Part shown: piece after piece, positions 6,105 to 63,460 of the stretch
Numbering within the stretch: position 1 is the first letter of the stretch
How the letters are laid out: each line of letters starts with the position of its first letter
DNA from: an uncultured Flavobacteriales bacterium
GTDB lineage: Bacteria; Bacteroidota; Bacteroidia; CAIKAF01
Length of the DNA: 64,000 nucleotides
Direction of reading: 5' to 3'
NCBI GenBank assembly: GCA_903825395.1
Contig: CAIKAF010000010.1
Coordinates: forward strand, 16,700 to 80,699
Translations under genes and position numbers: made by a program
Notes under the pieces: generated by a model
Databases searched by the model: none
Told to the model about the DNA's origin: nothing
Seen by the model: only the letters and a program-made list of their open reading frames with translations

Positions 6105-7469
6105 ATGCACATTCATTTTATAGCCATCGGTGGAGCCGCTATGCACACCTTGGCTCTGGCACTCAAAAAAGAAGGCCATGAAATTTCCGGGTCGGACGAT
6201 GAAATTTTTGAGCCCTCTCGCTCTCGATTGGCGGCCGCCAACCTGCTTCCCGAGCAAGAAGGGTGGTTCCCGGAACGGATACATGCCGGCATTGATGTTG
6301 TGGTGTTGGGGATGCATGCCAAGGCCGACAATCCGGAGTTGATTCGGGCGGAAGCCTTAGGTTTGACCATTCAATCGTATCCGGCCTTTTTTAAAGAATA
6401 TACCAAACATAAAACCAGAGTGGTAGTGGGCGGTAGCCATGGAAAAACCACCACCACATCCATGATCATACATGGTCTGCAGGCGCAAGGGGTTCCGTTT
6501 GACTGTCTGGTTGGAGCAAGCATTCCCGGTATTGAGTCTCCGGTGATGTTCGACCCCAACGCCACCTTGGCCATCATTGAAGGAGATGAATATTTGGCTT
6601 CTGCTCGTCAGCCCATTCCGAAGTTTCATGTCTATCAAGGTCATATTGGTGTCATTACCGGAATCGCCTGGGATCATGTAAATGTGTTTAAAACCATGGC
6701 CGATTACCAACGGCAGTTCGAATTGTTCATTGATACCTTGGTGCCCAACGGCCATCTTATTTATTGCCTGGAAGATTCGATTTTAAAAGAAATGGTGGAA
6801 CAGCATCCCCGAACCGACATACAGCGGCACGGATATTCTACCTTGGCCTACACCTACCAACAGCATACGGCCATCGTTCAGCATCAGGGCAGAGAATATC
6901 CGGTTGGAATTCAAGGTCGCCACAACATGCAAAATCTAGCGGCAGCATGCGTGGTGAATCGATTGCTGGGGGGCTCGGAAGAGAAATTTTTGCAATCCAT
7001 GGTGAATTTTCGTGGCGCCTCAAAGCGAATGGAAGTTTGGGGGCAAAAGCCACAGCACAACTTCTTGGCCATCAAGGATTTTGCCCATAGTCCTTCCAAG
7101 GTGAAAGCAACAGTGCAGGCGGTGCGCGAGGCCTACCCGAACCACCGTTTGCTCGCCATGCTCGAATTGCACACCTACAGCAGTCTGAGTCGGGATTTTT
7201 TGCCGGAATATCAGGGGGTGTTTCAGGGGGCCGACGACTTGGCTGTATTGTATGATCCACATGCCTTGGTCATCAAGCGACTGCCCGTCTTAAATGCGCA
7301 GGAAGTGGCAGATTCTATGGGGATTTCGAGCGGGAAGGTGTTTTCCGATCCCACCGTTTGGGCCAAATTTGTGCAGAGCCAGCCACGGGAAGACTCGGTT
7401 TTTCTGTGCATGAGCAGTGGAAATTGGGGCGCGGTTGATATGGCGGGGTGTATGGATATTGATGGTTGA
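6105..7469 (+). CDS. mpl: Mur-ligase family enzyme, Mpl-like (UDP-N-acetylmuramate:L-Ala-gamma-D-Glu-meso-DAP ligase) or MurC-like
   Basis: N-terminus IHFIAIGGAAMHTLALAL. The GGSHGKTTTTSMI P-loop is typical of Mur ligases. ~454 aa fits Mpl. Confidence 0.65.
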   Translation: MHIHFIAIGGAAMHTLALALKKEGHEISGSDDEIFEPSRSRLAAANLLPEQEGWFPERIHAGIDVVVLGMHAKADNPELIRAEALGLTIQSYPAFFKEYTKHKTRVVVGGSHGKTTTTSMIIHGLQAQGVPFDCLVGASIPGIESPVMFDPNATLAIIEGDEYLASARQPIPKFHVYQGHIGVITGIAWDHVNVFKTMADYQRQFELFIDTLVPNGHLIYCLEDSILKEMVEQHPRTDIQRHGYSTLAYTYQQHTAIVQHQGREYPVGIQGRHNMQNLAAACVVNRLLGGSEEKFLQSMVNFRGASKRMEVWGQKPQHNFLAIKDFAHSPSKVKATVQAVREAYPNHRLLAMLELHTYSSLSRDFLPEYQGVFQGADDLAVLYDPHALVIKRLPVLNAQEVADSMGISSGKVFSDPTVWAKFVQSQPREDSVFLCMSSGNWGAVDMAGCMDIDG

Positions 7470-7475
7470 GGGGTT

Positions 7476-7796
7476 GCAGCCCTTTGCGGTAAAAAACAGG
7501 TTCAGGCATTACTGCCAACTTTTACCACAGAGGCCGCCAAGGGAGCCGCAAAGTTTCACAAAGGTTTGGGGCGGAATGAGGGCGCACGCGTTTTGACTAC
7601 ATCCCCTCTGCGCCCTTTGCGCCGACATTGCGCCCTTTGCGGTAAAAATCCCTGGTTCAGGAATTTCTGCCAATTTTTACCACAGAGGCCGCCACGGCAG
7701 CCGCAAAGTTTCACAAAGGTTTGGGGTGGAACGAGAGCGCCCTCGTTTTGCCCACATCCCCTCTGCGCACTTTGCGCCGACATTGCGCCCTTTGCG
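7476..7796 (+). repeat. dispersed repeat family 1: two tandem ~155-bp units (7489-7641, 7642-7796) plus a partial leading fragment
   Basis: Unit ...ccacagaggccgccaagggagccgcaaagtttcacaaaggtttgggg...ctctgcgccctttgcgccgacattgcgccctttgcggtaaaaa. Recurs at 8555, 27355(-), 27915(-) and 37783. Confidence 0.8.
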
Positions 7797-7858
7797 GTAA
7801 AAAACGAAAGACCCCCAATTTTTGGTCTCAAGAGGATTTTTACTCTAGGAACTTCAGA

Positions 7859-8242
7859 TTACCAAAATAAAGGGATATTGTATTTCCCAATTATTTCATC
7901 TTTCGACACCAGAGTTAAACCATCGCTCTTACTCTGTGCAATTAGCAACCGGTCAAAGGGGTCCCGATGAATGAAATCTAAATTTGACACAATCATGGCA
8001 TGTTCAAATCGGATAGGAAGAACCTCAAATCCATTGCCCTCAATAAGTTGAATGAACGTATTAAAACCCGAAACAAATTTTATCCTTTCCAAGCTTACTT
8101 TAATAGCGATTTCCCAAATTGAGGCGATACTAACAAGTTTAATGTTTGTGTCTGACTCAATGGCCCTTCTTGCCGGAGTTGAAAGTTGCTCATCTCCATT
8201 TAAAAACCAGATAAGCGCGTGGGTATCAAGAAGTAGATTCAC
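7859..8242 (-). CDS. vapC: PIN-domain toxin, VapC family
   Basis: MNLLLDTHALIWFLNGDEQLS...LVSIASIWEIAIK, a classic VapC PIN N-terminus with acidic residues. 127 aa. 4-nt overlap with the upstream small ORF. Confidence 0.8.
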   Translation of the reverse strand: MNLLLDTHALIWFLNGDEQLSTPARRAIESDTNIKLVSIASIWEIAIKVSLERIKFVSGFNTFIQLIEGNGFEVLPIRFEHAMIVSNLDFIHRDPFDRLLIAQSKSDGLTLVSKDEIIGKYNIPLFW

Positions 8243-8445
8243 CCAATATGCTCTTTGAAATCATCGAGGGGAGCATCAAAATCGGGTGACATATAAATCT
8301 GGCCTTTTGCACAACCAAATTTTGGGGACTTCTGCTTTTTCCCTTTCTCGCCCCGTTTAAGCAAAGAGTCGATGAAATCTACAACTTCCAATTTTAATTC
8401 TTCTGGAAGAATGCTAACTTTTCTATACCACTGAGCATAATTCAT
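8239..8445 (-). CDS. antitoxin (DUF2281-like) partnered with VapC
   Basis: 68-aa ORF immediately upstream of vapC with overlap. MNYAQWYRKVSILPEELKLEVVDFIDSLLKR resembles DUF2281-type antitoxins. Confidence 0.6.
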   Translation of the reverse strand: MNYAQWYRKVSILPEELKLEVVDFIDSLLKRGEKGKKQKSPKFGCAKGQIYMSPDFDAPLDDFKEHIG

Positions 8446-8554
8446 GGCATTGTTTTAAACAAAGATACGAAACCTTTATGGGCTTTTCCAGGAGGGTTTT
8501 AATAGGATTCGGCATCCTATTCAGGGTGAAACTAAATCAAGGCATTCAGGTTTG

Positions 8555-8752
8555 TTTTACCACAAAGCCCACCAAGGGAGCCGCAAAGTTTCACAAAGGT
8601 TTGGGGTGGAATGAGGGCGCACGCGTTTTGACTACATCCCCTCTGCGCCCTTTGCGCCGACATTGCGCCCGTTGCGGTAAAAAAACCTGGTTCAGGAATT
8701 TCTGCCAATTTTTACCACAGAGGCAGCCAAGGCAGCCGCAAAGTTTCACAAA
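8555..8752 (+). repeat. dispersed repeat family 1, ~1.3 units
   Basis: Near-identical to 7489-7796 (accaagggagccgcaaagtttcacaaaggtttggggtggaatgagggcgcacgcg...). With 7476-7796 it forms direct repeats that flank the vapBC cassette. Confidence 0.8.
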
Positions 8753-8771
8753 GAGAGAATTGAAATCCCCC

Positions 8772-11228
8772 TCAATCCCCCACCTGATACCTCTGCTTCA
8801 TTTTCATTATCCGATCTTCCAACTGTTCCGTACTGAACTTTTCCCGAATCCGCTCCACCATAATCGGAAAAGCAAAAGGCGATGGCCGGCGGGTCTTACA
8901 AATCTGCCATTCCAAGCCCGAAAGCCGCTGCAAAGCCTCATGCAACCGCTGATGCTCCAACTGAAAATCCAACACCTCCTGCCGAGCCTGCCTCAACAAA
9001 ATATGATTGGGTTCCGATTCCCGAAACACATCAAAAAACAGCCGAGAACTGGCCTGCAAATGCCGATCCTTCTTGAATTTCCCGGGGTATCCCTGAAACA
9101 CCAAGCCCGCAATCCGTGCAATATCCCGAAACCGCCGACTGGCCAATTCTGTGGTGTTTAACCCGGCTTCAATATCTCCCAACAGCCCCGCCACCGACAA
9201 CAAGCCCTGCTCCCGAATCCATTCCGCCGAAATGTAGGTGTCGCTCAACAGCTCAAACCCGTAATCGTTCATCGAAATCGAAAACGACACCGGAAAATGC
9301 CGCGAAATTCGGTGGGCCAGCACCTGCGACATGCCCTCGTGCACAAAGCGGCCTTCAAAAGGAAAGAAGAACAAATGATGCCCCTCACGCGAGGCAAACT
9401 CCTCCACCAAAAACCGATGAGCCACCGGCAGGGCGCTGATGTTGGCCTGCACCTCCAGCAAAGGCTGAAGCTTTTCCCGTTCTGCCGAAGGCGTTTCCGA
9501 AGCGGGCAGAGACAACTCCCGCCGCAATCCCGCGCCCAATTCCGACGACAAAGGCATGCGGCCCCCTTGCCAGGAAGGCACGGCCCCCTTGCTGCCCTTT
9601 GCTGCCCGCACCTGCACCGCCATATCGCGGATGCGCAGCAGCTCCAGCAAGCGCCCCGCCAGCCAAAACGCATCGCCGGGCACCAGTTTCGCCACAAACC
9701 ATTCCTCCACATGCCCAATCAAGCCTCCGCCCTGATACGAAACCGGCAGCATGGCCTCGCTTTGAATCGTGCCAATGTTCATGCGGTGGCGCTGGGCAAT
9801 TCCTTTCCGCAGAATCCTCAACTTCCCATCTTCCCACTCGGCCTTTTGAAACTCCTCGTAATGCTGAAGGCTGGGGCCGCCGCTTAAAATAAACTGAATG
9901 CACTCCGCAAAGGCCTCCTCTTCCATGTGTTCAAAACAGGCGGTTTGCCGAATTTCCTGCCAAATGTGCTGCGGCACAAAGCCTTCCGACACCGCCAGGC
10001 TGCACAAGTATTGAATCAGCACATCGTAGCACAGGCGGTAGGGCTCAATGGGTTCCAGCGCACCTTGGTTCATGGCTTCGCGCAAGGCCGCCCCTTCCAG
10101 AATTTCAAGGGCATGGGTGGGCACAAAGAAAATGCGCGAGGCCTTTCCGGGTTGGTGTCCGGAGCGGCCGGCGCGCTGCACAAAGCGGGCAATCCCTTTC
10201 GGACCGCCCACCTGAATCACCACATCTACCGGCCTAAAATCCACGCCCAGATCCAGGCTGCTGGTGCACACCACCACCTTTAATTTCCCTTCGTGCAGGG
10301 CATCTTCCACCCAGAATCGGAGTTCTTTTGAAATTGAGCCGTGGTGCATGGCCATTTGGCCCGCCAAATCGGGTTGGCGCAGCAGCAATTCCCGGTACCA
10401 GATTTCGGCTTGAGCCCGGGTATTGGTAAACAGCAGGCAGCTGTTGGCCTGATGAATCACGGGCAGAACCAGGTCCAGAAGCCGAATGCCTAAGTGTCCG
10501 GCCCAGGGGAAGGAATCAATCTGTTCCGGCAGAATGCTGATCACTTCCCAGGATTTTTTCAGGTCGGCATGGATGAGTCGGGCGCTGGGAAACAGTTCAG
10601 GGCCCAGCAGAAAATAGGCCGCATCGCTGGGGGCGCTCAGCGTTGCCGAAATGCCCCAGACCTGCAGGTTTGGCAGCAGCGCCCGCAGGCGGCTGTGCGC
10701 CAGTTCCCAGAGCACGGCGCGCTTGGTACCCAGCAGGGCATGCCATTCGTCCACCACCACCGTTTGCAGGGCCGCGAAAAAGTCCGGATAGCCGGGGGTG
10801 GCCAGGAGCAGGTGCAGGCTTTCGGGGGTAGTAATCAGCACATCGGGTGGCGATTTCCAGAGTTTCCGGCGTTCGGCGGGACTGCTATCGCCGGTGCGCA
10901 GGCCCACGCTCAGCTGGGGAGCCAAATCCGGCAGCAGCGCCAGCACGGCGGCTTCCATTTCGCGGGCCAGGGCCCGTACGGGGCTAATCCAAATCACCTT
11001 AAGGCCAGATTTGGGCGATTGTGCGGCTTGAAGCAGGGCGGGAATAAACAGCGCATACGTCTTGCCGCTTCCGGTGGGGGCGGTCAGCAGGCCGTTGCAG
11101 CCCTCGTACACCGCTTGCCAGGCATCAAGTTGAAAGGCTTGGGGCTGCCAGCCGCGTTGGGCCATCCATGCCCGGCCCAGGTCCAGGGCCGAGGCAGAGC
11201 TGCTGAGTACATGGCCGCGGTCGCGCAT
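8772..11228 (-). CDS. DEAD/DEAH-box ATP-dependent helicase, Lhr-like (ligase-associated DNA-damage-response DEXH helicase family)
   Basis: Walker A LLTAPTGSGKTYA and a DEWH box (VVVDEWHALLG). 818 aa with a long C-terminal extension typical of Lhr-core helicases. The gene is markedly GC-rich. Confidence 0.6.
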   Translation of the reverse strand: MRDRGHVLSSSASALDLGRAWMAQRGWQPQAFQLDAWQAVYEGCNGLLTAPTGSGKTYALFIPALLQAAQSPKSGLKVIWISPVRALAREMEAAVLALLPDLAPQLSVGLRTGDSSPAERRKLWKSPPDVLITTPESLHLLLATPGYPDFFAALQTVVVDEWHALLGTKRAVLWELAHSRLRALLPNLQVWGISATLSAPSDAAYFLLGPELFPSARLIHADLKKSWEVISILPEQIDSFPWAGHLGIRLLDLVLPVIHQANSCLLFTNTRAQAEIWYRELLLRQPDLAGQMAMHHGSISKELRFWVEDALHEGKLKVVVCTSSLDLGVDFRPVDVVIQVGGPKGIARFVQRAGRSGHQPGKASRIFFVPTHALEILEGAALREAMNQGALEPIEPYRLCYDVLIQYLCSLAVSEGFVPQHIWQEIRQTACFEHMEEEAFAECIQFILSGGPSLQHYEEFQKAEWEDGKLRILRKGIAQRHRMNIGTIQSEAMLPVSYQGGGLIGHVEEWFVAKLVPGDAFWLAGRLLELLRIRDMAVQVRAAKGSKGAVPSWQGGRMPLSSELGAGLRRELSLPASETPSAEREKLQPLLEVQANISALPVAHRFLVEEFASREGHHLFFFPFEGRFVHEGMSQVLAHRISRHFPVSFSISMNDYGFELLSDTYISAEWIREQGLLSVAGLLGDIEAGLNTTELASRRFRDIARIAGLVFQGYPGKFKKDRHLQASSRLFFDVFRESEPNHILLRQARQEVLDFQLEHQRLHEALQRLSGLEWQICKTRRPSPFAFPIMVERIREKFSTEQLEDRIMKMKQRYQVGD

Positions 11229-11312
11229 GCAAACTAAACGAGGAAACAGGGGATTTGGTTTTAACCTCCCAGAGAATGGTCATCGCGGAAAGGAGAAGAC
11301 GTTGGATAATTT

Positions 11313-11460
11313 GGGCGGCTGCGGGCTTTCACCGGTAGTCCGCGGTGGCCGGGCGGGCTGTTGCCGGGCTGCGGTGGCTCCCAAGGTCGCCTCCTCGCCG
11401 CGGCACAGCTGCCGCCGGCCCCCTTGCGGGCAACCGGGTTCAATCCCTGCCGCGGGCGGC
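11313..11460 (+). repeat. GC-rich dispersed element, copy A (somewhat diverged)
   Basis: gggcggctgcgggctttcaccggtagtccgcggtggcc...ctcccaaggtcgcctcc...gggcaaccgggttcaatccctgccgcgggc. Homologous to the copies at 39831, 44437, 56876, 58428, 62991 and 63271. Confidence 0.8.
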
Positions 11461-11683
11461 GTGGATAGAAAAGGTAAGGGAAAGGGCCTTTGGAGCCCCA
11501 TTTTTAATTCCAACAAAATCAAGTATTTATACTTTAAACTGAAAATCATTTTCAGTATAATAGCCTGTATATCAAAATGTTGTTAAAAAAATCTTGCTTT
11601 TGAATCGAAAATTTGGATATCTTTAAATGCCGCATTGAGTTGGTTGATGCTTAAAGTACAACTACATATATCTAAACCCTTGC

Positions 11684-11812
11684 GATACAGGCCTTGAACT
11701 CTTTGAAGGAGTTCAGGCCTATATCGAGTACTACCACAGTAAAAAGCATCAGGGTACCAGGAGCACTCCTAATGAGGCATATTCTAAATTCAAAAAACTC
11801 TCAGCCGCTTGA
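11684..11812 (+). pseudogene. 3'-terminal remnant of an IS3-family (rve integrase) transposase orfB
   Basis: Translation ...ELFEGVQAYIEYYHSKKHQGTRSTPNEAYSKFKKLSAA* matches the conserved C-terminal tail of rve integrases (yIeyYNxxRxHxxLgyxTPxEay). Upstream homology is lost and a stop sits at 11645, so it is truncated. Confidence 0.5.
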
Positions 11813-11841
11813 TAAAAATCTTAACTTAGCAATGCCAACTT

Positions 11842-12420
11842 TTGGTCCAACAATTAGGGAGTATTACAGTTTTATTTGTATTGGTTTATACCTTGCAAAA
11901 CAAGATGATTGGAGAACTTGGAGAAAAAGGCAGGGAACTAGACCGAATTAAGGAAATTGAAAAAACAGTTAACAATATTGATACTGCTTATTTTAAGTAT
12001 GATGCAGAGAACAAAAAGCATATTCTAAATATGCATTTCTTGTTTCCAAAAGGCAGCTATGATATCTCTAAAATCGTGCCTGACAAACGGGCTGACTTGC
12101 TTAAAGCGGGTAACGTAATTAAACAACTCATTTTAAAATATCCGGAGGAAGAAAACATTAAATATCTAATAGTAGTAGAAGGACAAGCATCAAAAGACAA
12201 TTGGGTGGGTAATGACGACCTGAGTTACCACAGAGCGCAATCGCTAATTAAGTTATGGGAGCAAAACAATATTGGACTTGACAAATTAAAGAACTGTGAA
12301 ATAATTGTTGCAGGAAGTGGCGAGAAAGGTATTCCAAGGACACAACCAGACATTGGTAACGCTAACCAAAGATTTTTAATAACTATCGTTCCTAAAATCG
12401 GCCAAATGAAAAATAAATAG
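11842..12420 (+). CDS. OmpA/MotB-like peptidoglycan-binding protein with N-terminal TM helix and coiled coil, in an AT-rich islet
   Basis: TM segment ITVLFVLVYTL. The C-terminal YLIVVEGQASKDNWVGNDDLSYHRAQSLIKLW...GLDKL...IIVAGSGEKGIPRT fits the OmpA_C pattern (N..LS..RA ... G.GE..P). GC is about 33% against roughly 50% for the window. Confidence 0.55.
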   Translation: MVQQLGSITVLFVLVYTLQNKMIGELGEKGRELDRIKEIEKTVNNIDTAYFKYDAENKKHILNMHFLFPKGSYDISKIVPDKRADLLKAGNVIKQLILKYPEEENIKYLIVVEGQASKDNWVGNDDLSYHRAQSLIKLWEQNNIGLDKLKNCEIIVAGSGEKGIPRTQPDIGNANQRFLITIVPKIGQMKNK

Positions 12421-12431
12421 CCAACACATTT

Positions 12432-12494
12432 GGTGGCACTTTTTCAAAATAGGACAAGCCCAACTCTAAAGCCCAGTTTTGAAAAAGTGCCACC
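12432..12494. terminator. perfect 18-bp inverted repeat (ggtggcactttttcaaaa ... ttttgaaaaagtgccacc) between convergent genes; candidate bidirectional terminator
   Basis: Arms at 12432-12449 and 12477-12494 with a 27-nt loop. It is flanked by A/T runs on both strands and sits between the ompA-like gene (+) and the beta-barrel gene (-). Confidence 0.4.
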
Positions 12495-12531
12495 TAGCCA
12501 ACGCACCAATACAGAGCAACATGTGCCCCCC

Positions 12532-13626
12532 CTAAGGACTCACCAAACTAAACACCACCGACACAAACCACGTGTGCTGAAGGCTGTTCTCCAACAAATA
12601 CCCCTGATCCCCGAAAAAGCCCCGGAAAAATTCACGGTTGTCCGCGCCGAAGGTGTCCAGCTCAAAGGCATAGTTGTAGCGCAAGCCGGCCTGTATGCCA
12701 ATCCAATAAAAGCCGGAGAGGGAACGCTGATACTCCAAGCGCAAACGGAGCTCGCTGCGGCGCAGTTCTAGGTTGGTTTGAGACACCAAAATGTCGCTGT
12801 CTACATTCTCCAGCCGGTAACTCTGCCCTTCCAATTCAAAGCCCAAGGTGGCCAGGCTTCGAGGACTAAAGGTGCGGCGCAAACTGCCCCGGGCCGGCAA
12901 TAGACACTCTACTCCCCATTTGCCACTCGCCGAAGTCCAGTTCAACAAAACCACCGGAACGTAGTTCAATTCACCCACCCGATAGGTGCGGCTAATCCCC
13001 GCCCCCCACATAAACCGGTCGCTGACCTTGCGGCCATACAACAAGGCCGCAGAATAACGCAGGTTGCCCAAGGAGGGCAGCCGCTTCCAACCATAATCTC
13101 CACTGGCATCGGCCGAGGCCTGCAGCAATACAAAGTTCTTTTCATCAAAGGGCTTGAATACGGTAAATCCTACGCCCGCACTGCGAAGACCATTGCGCGA
13201 AAGCCATCGGTGCAACGGATGAGTCAGGGCCGTGGCATCTTCAAACACATAATTCTGATCCTGATAGTTCAGGTTCATTTGCCAGATGATGTTGTTGCGC
13301 GAAATCAAGGGGATGTTGGCCTGAAGACGCAAGCCATGCGATAATCCAATGCGGGAAGCAGAGGTGTCGGCAGGCGTGTTGGAATTGGTCATGGCGGGCG
13401 AACTTAGCCCCGCTCCGCCCACAACCTCATACCCAACACCAATGAGCCGCGCCGGACTCAAATTCAACACCTTAGAGCTGGCAAACCGCTTGGCGCCCTT
13501 GTCGGCAAAATCCAAATTGCCATACATGTCCCAGTCTTCATCGGTTGAACTGCTGTCGGTCTGTGCCGAAGCAATCAGTGGGCACAGGAACAACAAGCCC
13601 AAGGCATAGTGCTTCAGCCGCAACAT
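12532..13626 (-). CDS. putative outer-membrane beta-barrel (porin-like) protein
   Basis: Signal peptide (MLRLKHYALGLLFLCPLIASAQT) and an alternating hydrophobic beta-strand pattern with many Y/F/W/G. The start was chosen at the Met that abuts the upstream gene's stop. Confidence 0.4.
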   Translation of the reverse strand: MLRLKHYALGLLFLCPLIASAQTDSSSTDEDWDMYGNLDFADKGAKRFASSKVLNLSPARLIGVGYEVVGGAGLSSPAMTNSNTPADTSASRIGLSHGLRLQANIPLISRNNIIWQMNLNYQDQNYVFEDATALTHPLHRWLSRNGLRSAGVGFTVFKPFDEKNFVLLQASADASGDYGWKRLPSLGNLRYSAALLYGRKVSDRFMWGAGISRTYRVGELNYVPVVLLNWTSASGKWGVECLLPARGSLRRTFSPRSLATLGFELEGQSYRLENVDSDILVSQTNLELRRSELRLRLEYQRSLSGFYWIGIQAGLRYNYAFELDTFGADNREFFRGFFGDQGYLLENSLQHTWFVSVVFSLVSP

Positions 13627-14087
13627 TATTTCGCCGGGATTTGAAGCCGCTTCCATACATCGGTGCGGCCAAAGGTAGAGATGCCAATGTAACCCCGAAT
13701 GTCAAGGGTATTGGGGTCCTTCATGGAAATGGTGCAACTGTAGGTGCTGCCGTTCTCCGGATCGTAGATGGTGCCTTCACTCCAACTGTTGTTGCCGGCA
13801 TAGCTAAAATCCTTGAGCAGGCGGTAGCCTTTTAAGGGCACCGTGCGCAGGGATTCGTCGGGGTTGTTTTTATCGGTTTTCGGCTGCTTGGTTTTGGGAT
13901 CTACCGGCTCTTTAAGCCACACGATTTTTCCATAGTATTTGGGTCCGATTTTCTCGATTTTTACCCGGGCTTTGCCGTTGCTGGGCTCCCAAACGCCAAG
14001 CAGACGGTCGGCATCGGCCTGGGCAGAAAGCAAGAGGGTTGAGGCCCAGAAAAGCAGGGCCGAAGAGGTCTTTAGAACTAGGTTCAT
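13626..14087 (-). CDS. DUF2147 domain-containing periplasmic protein
   Basis: Signal peptide. GVWEPSNGKARVKIEKIG..YYGKIVWL...GTIYDPENGSTYSCTISMKD.NTLDIRGY matches the DUF2147 signature. Confidence 0.6.
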   Translation of the reverse strand: MNLVLKTSSALLFWASTLLLSAQADADRLLGVWEPSNGKARVKIEKIGPKYYGKIVWLKEPVDPKTKQPKTDKNNPDESLRTVPLKGYRLLKDFSYAGNNSWSEGTIYDPENGSTYSCTISMKDPNTLDIRGYIGISTFGRTDVWKRLQIPAK

Positions 14088-27296: not shown

Positions 27297-27354
27297 TCCG
27301 TTTGGGATTTGAAATTGGGGGCGGTTTACTATTACGGTAAAGAACGATTTTAGT

Positions 27355-27509
27355 GACTTGAAGTTTTTTTTGCCGCGAAGGACACCATGTCGGCACAAAG
27401 TGCACAGAGGGAGTGGTGTTATACCGAGAGTGTGCAGGAGTTCCGAGGCTCCTTTGCGAACATTGCGGCTTCCTTTGCGGCCATTGCGGTAAAAAATGGC
27501 GGTTAGGCC
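27355..27509 (-). repeat. dispersed repeat family 1, reverse orientation
   Basis: The reverse complement reads ttttttaccgcaatggccgcaaaggaagccgcaatgttcgcaaaggagcc...ccctctgtgcactttgtgccgacat, matching the 37783-37920 copy. Confidence 0.7.
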
Positions 27510-27602
27510 TTGATGGGTTTTTCACGGAAAAGAACACTTAAGCGACAACATTCAAAAATCCAAACCAGAGAAAGGCCTGTTTCCCCTCATATTTTATATT
27601 TG

Positions 27603-27639
27603 GGCGTAAATTTTACAATAGCATTGTAAAATTTACGCC
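27603..27639. promoter_or_regulatory. perfect 17-bp/3-nt-loop palindrome ggcgtaaattttacaat-agc-attgtaaaatttacgcc in the ~880-bp leader upstream of the pyrimidine-catabolism cluster; operator or terminator
   Basis: Perfect inverted repeat, read directly. Followed by attttatgtg. Sits between the two family-1 repeat copies. Confidence 0.5.
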
Positions 27640-27914
27640 ATTTTATGTGATACAACAAAAATCAGCCTTCTTGCTGGGGGAAATATCTTCATGATTGTAT
27701 TGATCATTGATTGCTATTCCGTAGCTCAAAACACCAGGACCCCGTGGGGGTGATATTATTGTAGGTGGCATTATTGTGGGATACATGATAATATTTGGAA
27801 TAGAAAATTTGCCTCACTCCCCCTCAGCGCCTTTTTCGGCTCCTTCATGGTAAAAATCCCATTAAAATAGCGAGAGTATTTTTTACCATTTCAATTCGGC
27901 GCAACGGGCACGGA

Positions 27915-39713: not shown

Positions 39714-39830
39714 GCTTCAAAGGTAGGGGTTGTAGGGGAGGTTTGAAAGGGGAGCACGTATTGGATTTGGAATTTTAGGTTGTCCCCTCGTTTCCAATAC
39801 ATTCTATTACGAATCCCCCCCAAGTCTCAA

Positions 39831-39985
39831 CGCCGCCCGCGGCAGGGATTGAAGAGGGTAGGACGCCAGTGTGCCGGAGCCTGGCCCGCGAGGCGCGGAG
39901 GCGACCTTGGGAGCCCCCGCAAGCCCGCTGGGCCAGCCTTCCGGCACCGGCGGACTAGCCCTGAAAGCCCGCCCGCCGCCCCCCC
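39831..39985 (-). repeat. GC-rich dispersed element, copy B (reverse orientation)
   Basis: cccgcggcagggattgaag...gcggaggcgaccttgggagcccccgcaagcccgctgggccagcc...gaaagcccgcccgccgccccc. Confidence 0.8.
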
Positions 39986-44427: not shown

Positions 44428-44436
44428 GAGGGGTAT

Positions 44437-44586
44437 TCGGGCGGCAGCCGGGCTTTCAGGGGTAGTCTGCCCTTGCCGAAAGGCGGGCCCAGCGGGCTTG
44501 CGGGGGCTCCTAAAGTCGCCTCCGCGCCGCGCGGGCCCGGCTTCGGCAACGGGCAGAGCTACCCTCTTCAATCCCTGCCGCGGGCC
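44437..44586 (+). repeat. GC-rich dispersed element, copy C
   Basis: gggcggcagccgggctttcaggggtagtc...gcgggcccagcgggcttgcgggggctcctaaagtcgcctccgcgccgcgcgggcccggc...caatccctgccgcgggcc. Overlaps the last ~6 codons of menD. Confidence 0.8.
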
Positions 44587-56751: not shown

Positions 56752-56875
56752 AGGGTTGGCAGGTTAGTGAGGTCGATTTCCATCTAGGTCGCAAAATATT
56801 GATTTTTCCTTTCTTATCCCCCTCCATTTTTTAGGGTGAATCATTGATTTGGATAGGTTCTTTTCTGTTTTTTCT

Positions 56876-57025
56876 TGGGCGGCTGCGGGCTTTCGTGGGT
56901 AGTCCGCGGTGGGCGGAAGTCTGGCCCAGCGGGCTTGCGGGGGCTCCCAAGGTCGCCTCCGCGCCACGCGGGCCAGGCTCCGCCCACCTTGCGGGCAACC
57001 CTACTCAATCCCTGCCGCAGGGCCC
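56876..57025 (+). repeat. GC-rich dispersed element, copy D
   Basis: gggcggctgcgggctttcgtgggtagtccgcggtgggcggaagtctggcccagcgggcttgcgggggctcccaaggtcgcctccgcgccacgcgggccaggctcc...caatccctgccgcagggcc. Confidence 0.8.
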
Positions 57026-58381: not shown

Positions 58382-58427
58382 CCCCCAATCTGCAGTTTTT
58401 CCCTACTCAGTATTAGGCATGATGTGG

Positions 58428-58573
58428 CCCGCGGCAGGGATTGAACCGGGTAGCACGCCAACGGGGCGGAGCCTGGCCCGCGTGGTGCGGAGGCGACTTT
58501 AGGAGCCACCGCAAGCCCGCTGGGCCAGCCTTCCGCCCTGTGCGGACTACCGGTGAAAGCCCGCAGCCGCCCC
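58428..58573 (-). repeat. GC-rich dispersed element, copy E (reverse orientation)
   Basis: cccgcggcagggattgaaccgggtagc...ggcgcggaggcgactttaggagccaccgcaagcccgctgggccagcc...ggtgaaagcccgcagccgccccc. Confidence 0.8.
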
Positions 58574-62966: not shown

Positions 62967-62990
62967 GTTGAGGAATCTGGTTTTTTTAAT

Positions 62991-63137
62991 GGGGGCGGCT
63001 ACGGGCTTTCACCGGTAGTCCGCGGTGGCCGGAAGGCTGGCCCAGCGGGCTTGCGTGGGCTCCCAAGGTCGCCTCCGCGCCGCGCGGGCCAGGCTCCGGC
63101 CCCTGGCGGGCTACCCGGTTCAATCCCTGCCGCTGGC
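62991..63137 (+). repeat. GC-rich dispersed element, copy F
   Basis: gggggcggctacgggctttcaccggtagtccgcggtggccggaaggctggcccagcgggcttgcgtgggctcccaaggtcgcctccgcgccgcgcgggccaggctccggcccctggcgggctacccggttcaatccctgccgctggcc. Confidence 0.8.
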
Positions 63138-63270
63138 CAAGAAAATATTAAAGCAATACTAGAGCAGATGGCTCAACAACGTTTCCACCTCAAATATAAT
63201 TTCAAAGGCTGAAATTCCAAACTTTAGGTTGATTTTTTTGTTTCCTGGCCTTTAAAATGGATTCGGGTCG

Positions 63271-63414
63271 CCCGCGGCAGGGATTGAGCCGGGTTGCCCG
63301 CAAGGGGGGCCTGGCGCTGCCCGCGTGGCGCGGAGGCGACCTTGGGAGCCACCGCAAGCCCGCTGGGCAGCCCAGTGCCCACCGCGGACAACCGGTGAAA
63401 GCCCGCAGCCGCCC
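63271..63414 (-). repeat. GC-rich dispersed element, copy G (reverse orientation; forms an inverted pair with copy F across a 133-bp AT-rich spacer)
   Basis: cccgcggcagggattgagccgggttgcccgcaagggggg...gcggaggcgaccttgggagccaccgcaagcccgctgggcagccc...ggtgaaagcccgcagccgccc. Confidence 0.8.
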
Positions 63415-63460
63415 AATTCCTCACCCTATTTATTCTGTTTTTTGCTGCGGCCTACTCGCT

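Follow-up and report, generated by a model that had tools for sequence, protein, structure and literature searches.

An AT-rich islet in an uncultured Flavobacteriales genome probably carries the IS3-truncated end of a ZorB-like gene

The DNA analyzed here is a 64,000-nucleotide stretch (the window) of contig CAIKAF010000010.1 from an uncultured Flavobacteriales bacterium. Its subject is an AT-rich islet at 11466-12523, which lies between a gene for an Lhr-type helicase (WH_Lhr and DEAD_assoc domains) on one side and genes for DUF6268, DUF2147, lipoprotein and TolC-type OEP proteins on the other. The islet contains the end of an IS3-family insertion sequence (IS) and a 192-codon open reading frame (ORF) that an earlier note, made from the sequence alone, had described as an orphan stator-like (MotB/OmpA-like) gene of open function. 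That observation was mostly right, but the orphan gene is with good confidence to be replaced by a recent IS-truncated relic: the ORF is very probably what is left (the 3' end) of a ZorB-type gene, one of four genes in a mobile cassette, after truncation by an IS3 element. The features of the locus are collected in Table 1.

The guanine plus cytosine (GC) content drops from 0.62-0.74 over 11050-11465 to 0.30-0.39 over 11466-12420 (in 300-nt windows, 0.62-0.66 in the helicase gene and over the GC-rich repeat, then 0.32-0.38 at 11500-12400). The islet as a whole has a GC content of 0.36 as against 0.517 for the entire window (1-64000), so that both the AT-rich islet and the sharp drop reported after the GC-repeat are borne out; the host has a GC content of 52-59% and the cassettes described below 27-34%. 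The segment bounds used for the GC values in Table 1 are 1-2 nt off the final coordinates, the IS/zorB junction having later been set at 11868/11869. In the nearest relatives within the species collection (L018 and L019, freshwater Bacteroidota metagenome-assembled genomes), whose DUF6268 orthologues are 80% identical, no islet follows the DUF6268 stop codon; the GC-rich repeat comes directly after that stop and different genes lie beyond it. Helicase synteny is not conserved in these relatives at 80% protein identity, and what the comparison shows is only that there is no islet beside their DUF6268 gene. The foreign origin claimed earlier thus agrees with both the low GC content and this absence. 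The AT-rich islet is real, foreign and a patchwork of relics. Its left border is the GC-rich repeat, which lies outside the foreign DNA, and its right border is the DUF6268 gene, since the stop codon of that gene is 8 nt from the right islet junction.

Table 1. Features of the AT-rich islet and its borders (window coordinates; in the GC column the segment bounds used for the calculation are in parentheses)
Feature	Coordinates	Strand	GC	Remark
GC-rich dispersed repeat copy, ~150 nt	11307..11465	+	0.74 (11307-11465)	Left border of islet
AT-rich segment, no assigned source, small palindrome at 11534-11560	11466..11648		0.30 (11466-11647)	
Last 220 nt of 1254-bp IS3-family element	11649..11868	+	0.39 (11648-11866)	Matches 3' ends of full-length copies
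Listed ORF, 192 aa, TTG start	11842..12420	+		Chimera of IS end and zorB-like gene
zorB-like 3' fragment, codons 29-211 of 211 plus stop	11869..12420	+	0.35 (11867-12420)	
Parent-cassette 3' untranslated region, including 18-bp inverted repeat	12421..12523	+		
Native DUF6268 outer-membrane beta-barrel-type gene	12532..13656	-		Right border

The IS part of the islet was identified by comparison with full-length copies of the same element, which are 1254 nt long and are present in five loci (L081, L083, L084, L087 and L090) at 97-99% identity and with different flanks. The intact element has overlapping orfA (105 aa, HTH_Tnp_1) and orfB (275 aa, rve) genes; its copies score 230 bits against the NCBIfam IS3 profile (NF033516, cut-off 160) and have an E-value of 7.5e-27 with Pfam rve, and a 71%-identical relative in L017 has the same architecture. 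Its ends (left TGCAACACTCCCC..., right ...GGGAGTATTACA) are of the form 5'-TG...CA-3', which together with a length of 1.2-1.5 kb characterizes IS3-type elements. The window retains the right end only, with ...GGGAGTATTACA at 11868. The 220 nt in the window are 95.5-99.1% identical to the last 220 nt of the element (98.6-99.1% to the 3' ends in L081, L083, L084 and L087), and by comparison with the intact copies the breakpoint at 11648/11649 is clean. The tail holds a remnant of orfB (codons 11651-11809, stop 11810-11812) and the right terminal inverted repeat (~11839-11868, ending ...GAGTATTACA). The earlier note had the presence of an IS3 relic right, but its 43 codons ending in NEAY are really 53-54 codons (11648/11651-11809) ending in ...NEAYSKFKKLSAA before the stop, with the terminal repeat running on to 11868; the frame 11648-11809 translates to ...LKYNYIYLNPCDTGLELFEGVQAYIEYYHSKKHQGTRSTPNEAYSKFKKLSAA and a stop. 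The 53-codon remnant scores 16 bits (E = 0.005) against NCBIfam IS3, through C-terminal codons only. Compared with the intact 1254-bp element, a remnant of 220 nt with 53 orfB codons and one terminal repeat is immobile. The terminal 29 nt of the IS were found at 14 loci in a metagenome scan, and the DNA that follows the IS end (...TATTACA) is unrelated in more than 10 copies; in the window it is codon 29 of a zorB-like gene.

Two other arrangements of this element were seen. One locus (L016, the same as L078) has inverted copies of the same IS3 end at 528-748 and 6462-6583 that face inward, and the ~5.7-kb segment between them encodes proteins of 262 aa, 1405 aa (AAA_16, STAND-like) and 127 aa, a layout that resembles a composite transposon; the left IS copy there is a solo tail truncated within ~3 nt of the window breakpoint, which fits no simple account. 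In an ENA contig, a 54-aa ORF (P0272) runs through the IS3 end (MSTFGPTIREYY) straight into the transposase tail (NTGLELFEGVQAYIEYYHSKK...), which suggests nested or tandem relics of the IS3 element elsewhere.

DNA homology to intact zorB-like genes starts exactly at 11869, so the IS end is joined to codon 29 with its terminal repeat abutting. A homology search with the ORF found 538 homologues, almost all of them 210-211 aa long and the best 92-95% identical; the fragment itself is 88-90% identical to the intact 210-211-aa homologues at the nucleotide level and 92-94% at the amino acid level. The ORF aligns from residue 29 of these proteins (VLFVLVYT onward), and their first 28 residues, MAKSNEKKRDFFWLSYSDLMTSLFFVML, have no counterpart in it. 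Instead, the IS terminal repeat contributes its TTG start at 11842 and its first nine codons (MVQQLGSIT); were this in-frame TTG not present in the IS end, there would be no 192-aa ORF. In public gene calls the gene begins at an internal ATG (11905), and its product, of 171 aa, has no Pfam match. What had been taken for an intact membrane-anchored protein standing alone is thus a 5'-truncated fragment with its start codon inside an IS end. No Bacteroidota TAnnTTTG promoter motif is present on the + strand of 11466-11910, a negative hint on expression. Two homologues of 170-192 aa (P0028 and P0092) were considered as examples of the same truncation and rejected; one is called at a contig edge and the other from a late start, both in intact cassettes.

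The segment missing from the ORF contains FFWLSYSDLMT, with its Asp, and half of the transmembrane (TM) helix. FWLSYSDLMT of the intact homologue aligns with FWISYADLMT of the E. coli type I ZorB (PDB 8QYD), which places Asp18 on Asp26, a residue that is universally conserved in ZorB and mechanistically essential, as the D26N change abolishes defense (PMC11946911). Judged by this alignment, the lost 28 residues are the functional heart of a stator B subunit. The intact protein has a TM segment at residues 19-37 by hydropathy; its maximum 19-residue hydropathy is 2.44 as against 1.41 for the window ORF, which has a 14-residue hydrophobic run that is below threshold. The N-terminal TM helix noted earlier is therefore only half a helix, preceded by nine residues from the IS end. 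An N-terminal TM helix with the conserved Asp is found in the intact homologues but not in the window copy, and an adjoining A-subunit gene is found at all the intact loci but not in the window. As the earlier note had observed, there is no MotA/ExbB/TolQ-type gene within ~10 kb, and the window has no homologue of the cognate ZorA-like gene. Its comparison with ZorB of Zorya was the right lead: the PADLOC ZorB1 model gives 1e-4 with the ORF and 3e-13 with the intact homologues. The intact homologues share with the solved ZorB proteins (8QYD; 8VVI, Sulfuricurvum type II) the FWxSYxDLMT motif with its essential Asp, a position directly after a ZorA-like gene and, as modeled, a TM helix running without a linker into a long helix and an OmpA-like domain, but their sequence similarity to solved ZorB is limited to the N-terminal 55 residues; the window copy differs from both in having lost residues 1-28 and the ZorA partner.

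The part of the protein that is retained is a genuine OmpA-like domain by its motif and by the predicted fold of a homologue. The peptidoglycan-binding motif of the OmpA_C family is N-x2-L-S-x2-R-A-x2-(V/L), and the ORF contains GNDDLSYHRAQSL (NxxLSxxRAxxL); N143, L146, S147, R150, A151 and L154 are invariant in 26 sequences. Of the OmpA_C signature claimed earlier, the MotB/OmpA-like character stands but the Pfam match does not: OmpA (PF00691) gives 15.4 bits (E = 0.024) with the ORF and 17.8 with an intact homologue, both under the cut-off of 27.2, and the NCBIfam profiles find nothing on the 192-aa ORF, so family assignment was taken from the homologues. The fold was modeled on the intact homologue P0020 and not on the window ORF. 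This AlphaFold (AF2) model (pLDDT 78.7) has one long helix followed by an alpha/beta domain, and its top 40 Foldseek matches in the PDB are OmpA-like domains (E 1e-4 to 4e-3, probability ~1.0), the best being PA0833, FopA, OprF, PomB, MotB and YfiB; type II ZorB (8VVI) aligns to the model over its full length. The predicted fold also matches Pal with a Foldseek probability of 1.0, and the NxxLSxxRAxxL motif is shared with MotB/PomB and OmpA_C proteins, but the Pfam OmpA scores (15-18 bits) stay below threshold, the MotB_plug match is insignificant (0.081) and the ZorB-like gene has no flagellar context. Bacteroidota are generally without flagella.

What, then, does an intact gene of this kind stand next to? 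Every examined intact relative lies directly downstream of a ZorA-like gene in a four-gene operon, so the stand-alone gene proposed earlier has no match among its homologues. The operon encodes, in order, a 484-501-aa DarT-domain protein, a 220-226-aa DUF6939 protein, a 496-aa ZorA-like protein and the 210-224-aa ZorB-like protein, and it is the same in every locus with enough flank, including eight assembled loci (L001-L003, L006, L007, L070-L072 and L073) with 59-97% protein identity: Paraflavitalea and related contigs (L001-L003; the cassette in L002, from Paraflavitalea GCA_050589225.1, spans 6315-10633), Swiss lake metagenomes (L006-L008), a 75%-identical copy on a 287-kb contig beside helicase, AAA and RecC-type genes (L070-L072) and a 59%-identical copy (L073). 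The ZorB-like gene starts 1 nt after the stop codon of the 496-aa gene, also on several shorter contigs. Many metagenome contigs, 4.5-4.9 kb long, contain nothing but the cassette, which would place it in varied contexts within one sample, and elsewhere it adjoins restriction-modification and helicase genes. The 64-kb window has no match to the other three genes or to the two small ORFs located after the cassette in Paraflavitalea.

The 496-aa protein matches PADLOC ZorA models at 8e-7 to 6e-5 and has a sub-threshold Pfam MotA_ExbB match at residues 126-210 and three TM segments (5-23, ~139-164 and 185-203). All of the top 40 PDB matches of its model are TolQ, ExbB, ZorA (8QYD_A, 8QYH_A, 8VVN_C) and PomA chains, and after the TolQ/ExbB-like domain come ~290 helical residues, which the monomer prediction gives at low confidence. 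Homologues of the 496-aa protein with 70-100% identity were found in Paraflavitalea, Pedobacter, Mucilaginibacter, Flavobacterium and Saprospiraceae. The product of the first gene, ~500 aa long, has an uncharacterized N-terminal region of ~330 aa and a DarT domain at its C-terminus (Pfam 71.6 bits, cut-off 22.5). The DUF6939 protein scores 18.7 bits against NADAR-DarT1 (cut-off 27), and its similarity to the Shedu nuclease region is also sub-threshold. PADLOC finds only DarT (5.8e-9) and SduA (4.5e-6) on these two genes and no ZorC-G, and PDB sequence searches gave nothing significant for the ZorA-like, DarT-domain and DUF6939 proteins.

In published Zorya systems a proton-driven, peptidoglycan-anchored ZorA5B2 motor detects perturbation of the envelope and passes the signal on to soluble effectors by way of the ZorA tail (PMC11946911, PMC11890865). 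By its parts and by analogy, the parent cassette would encode a proton-driven 5:2 motor of the Zorya kind with a soluble effector coupled to it. Unlike Zorya types I-III it lacks ZorC/D, ZorE and ZorF/G, it has a DarT-domain protein and DUF6939 upstream with the motor genes last, and its ZorA-like protein is shorter (496 aa); of all this the window has only the zorB fragment. DarTG and DarT1-NADAR systems share the DarT single-stranded DNA ADP-ribosyltransferase domain with the first gene of the cassette, but the cassette has no macrodomain DarG, its DarT is at the C-terminus of a 500-aa protein, its DUF6939 neighbor falls short of the NADAR-DarT1 cut-off (above), and none of this DNA is in the window. 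Full-text literature searches, whose coverage did not extend to subscription journals, gave no link of ZorAB or Zorya to DarT, NADAR or DUF6939, no named fourth Zorya type and no description of the four-gene operon, which is suggestive only. We consider the chances about even that the source of the relic is an undescribed Zorya-like system, in which a short-tailed ZorAB motor signals to a DarT-type ADP-ribosyltransferase and DUF6939 and not to ZorC/D, ZorE or ZorF/G nucleases, and whose ~4.4-kb cassette is spreading at 75-100% protein identity across Bacteroidota families. The DarT-domain/DUF6939/ZorA-like/ZorB-like operon occurs in many freshwater and soil Bacteroidota, with 70-100% protein identity in several families, and, if it is a defense system, would link a Zorya-type envelope sensor to DNA ADP-ribosylation.

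The right end of the cassette piece is also a break. Cassette homology with the closest copies is unbroken from 11869 through the stop codon and a hairpin to 12523; past the equivalent point the other loci continue as cassette DNA (AGACAACAACACG...) and the window turns to host sequence, 8 nt before the DUF6268 stop codon. The perfect 18-bp inverted repeat at 12432-12494 in the earlier note was confirmed (18/18, 12432-12449 / 12477-12494), but the islet does not end with it: because homology runs on past it to 12523, the hairpin is internal to the 3' untranslated region of the cassette and is not the islet border. As RNA it folds with -29.9 kcal/mol (z = -5.5; none of 200 shuffles folds as well). 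The hairpin and 3' untranslated region are present in L005, L006, L008, L010 and L013 with one compensatory change (G-C there, T-A in the window), and L001-L004 lack the hairpin through an indel. It may be terminator-like or RNA-stabilizing; a canonical intrinsic terminator was rejected, as no T-run follows it, and the Rfam microRNA look-alike matches are far below threshold. The indel is a polymorphism between cassette lineages (12421-12523 compared with L002 10630-10660 and L006 4575-4677); the hairpin sits among three copies of a AAGCCAACGC-like motif and in the window is flanked by an 8-nt direct repeat, TAGCCAAC. A miniature transposon, which this direct repeat might suggest, was rejected: the window has the hairpin only once, it keeps its place in the cassette 3' untranslated region, and the indel lies among the AAGCCAACGC motifs.

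Codons 1-28 and the three upstream genes are absent from the window, the cassette is also broken on the right, the composition is foreign, and the intact operon exists elsewhere. The events and their order would be as follows: A low-GC DarT/DUF6939/ZorA-like/ZorB-like cassette circulating among Bacteroidota was presumably acquired alone or in a larger island; the 1254-bp IS3-family element, recently active, would then have inserted in the zorB-like gene between codons 28 and 29; and one or more deletions would have removed IS positions 1-1034, the first 28 zorB codons, zorA and the DUF6939 and DarT genes, as well as everything downstream of the cassette 3' untranslated region. Of the IS 220 nt are left, and of the cassette 655 nt.

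How old is the truncation? Between the fragment and intact copies dS (synonymous divergence) is 0.62-0.75 and dN (non-synonymous divergence) 0.019-0.020, or dN/dS 0.025-0.03, and the intact copies among themselves give 0.017-0.033. The window lineage has 13 synonymous changes of its own and three non-synonymous ones (M37L, Q84H and F157L), where the neutral expectation is ~1:4. A dN/dS of ~0.03 together with an IS tail only ~1% diverged from active copies implies that the truncation is recent and that nearly all of the divergence preceded it; neither the IS nor the cassette piece would be decaying yet, and the remains look selected because they are young. Selection on the fragment itself is rated low, as its product has no anchor or signal peptide, no Asp and no partner.

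Several observations weigh against this reconstruction. The 183 codons of the fragment have no stop or frameshift, and both the dN/dS of 0.025-0.03 and the 13:3 ratio would also fit continued selection on it. No population variant of this genome with an intact cassette at the islet site was found, which bears on in-situ decay as opposed to import of a broken piece, and the AT-rich segment at 11466-11648 has no match among the cassette loci, IS loci and relatives. It is possible, though we think it unlikely, that the IS end arrived already joined to its 655 nt of zorB DNA through IS-mediated or illegitimate recombination: both ends of the cassette fragment are arbitrary breakpoints, the unrelated L016/L078 tail truncated within ~3 nt of the same position hints at recurrent solo tails, and the inverted IS ends in L016 flank a cargo gene much as in a composite transposon. 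Against such an import, a tail of 220 nt that has a single terminal repeat and lacks transposase is unable to move by itself, and none of the 14 metagenome loci that hold this IS end has the IS::zorB junction. A non-functional relic is the outcome under either history. That the truncated protein is instead kept as a stand-alone factor (a peptidoglycan binder, or a dominant-negative or decoy partner of another stator-type complex, with a promoter in or near the IS end) is considerably less probable still. Such a role would suit the intact frame with its in-frame TTG, the retained NxxLSxxRAxxL motif, the low dN/dS with only three private amino acid changes, and the presence of the identical relic in several independent metagenome assemblies. 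But with no complete TM segment or signal peptide a domain meant for the periplasm would remain cytoplasmic, there is neither the conserved Asp nor an A-subunit partner, F157L alters a nearly invariant residue, and an IS tail 99% identical to active copies leaves too little time for the low dN/dS to reflect selection after truncation; the truncated form does not recur among more than 500 homologues, other short forms being contig-edge or start-codon calls.

Even less credible are two further readings. A chimeric joining of DNA from a low-GC organism to this contig would account for the abrupt GC change, for borders located at repeats (the GC-rich one and the hairpin) and for the breaks of other assemblies there (L014 ends at 12488 and L015 at 11384). 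However, L015, the Logan assembly of ERR4195123, covers 11384-12600 at 100% identity and so spans both junctions, and two further samples gave contigs (70 and 74 kb) with the same gene order; this independent assembly and these contigs make a chimera very improbable. A native, vertically inherited AT-rich OmpA-family envelope gene is the least probable of all, although JGI annotates some homologues as 'outer membrane protein OmpA-like peptidoglycan-associated protein': the homologues are 75-100% identical across Bacteroidota families (those listed above for the 496-aa protein), are always inside the four-gene cassette and often in defense-type neighborhoods, at the islet site the gene is missing from the host's closest relatives, and its GC content is 16 points under that of the host. 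A ubiquitous core-genome OmpA lipoprotein at a conserved position, the scenario that the earlier note had set against its own reading, was likewise not seen.

We therefore return to truncation by the IS, under which the 192-aa product is most likely a non-functional pseudogene fragment, because the plug-like N-terminus, the ion-binding Asp, the complete anchor and the A subunit are all lost; its peptidoglycan-binding domain would be unable to reach the periplasm. The islet as a whole is in all likelihood a decaying scrap of horizontally acquired DNA, the product of common gene decay rather than a system that stands alone. A MotB-like protein 'without a stator partner' at this site would then be a truncation product, which removes a false lead, and the islet would be a dated example of the loss of a defense cassette by IS insertion followed by deletion. 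Automated annotation makes the fragment a 171-aa hypothetical or OmpA-like protein, and such fragments can inflate counts of orphan stator-like or OmpA-like genes.

The remaining observations concern minor features of the islet and its surroundings. For the AT-rich segment at 11466-11648, the palindrome had no match in an exact-match scan of JGI metagenomes, no Rfam family matches, and a resemblance to the sequence that follows the GC repeat of L018 falls short of significance. The GC-rich repeat copy (11300-11470) folds no better than shuffles (z = -0.4) and belongs to no Rfam family in a scan of 11200-12600. The helicase (818 aa, 8772-11228, - strand) matches the PADLOC models BrxHI (5e-68), SngC (7e-65) and DpdJ (7e-60), scores that may reflect only shared Lhr-core helicase ancestry; no BREX or Dpd partner genes were seen near it. 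The window has only three low-GC patches. Besides the islet there is one at 7800-8600 (~39-43% GC), on the far side of the helicase gene, where public gene calls give a DUF2281/PIN-domain pair that looks like a toxin-antitoxin module, so that the helicase is flanked on both sides by AT-rich accessory DNA, and one at 27300-27900, with 500-nt windows below 42% GC. Six further copies of the GC-rich repeat, 71-83% identical to that at the islet, are present in the window, and the flanks of the seven (~150 nt, ~74% GC; 11307-11465, 39827-39981, 44435-44585, 56875-57021, 58427-58572, 62987-63137 and 63269-63416) differ from copy to copy; others were found in L080, L086 and L088.

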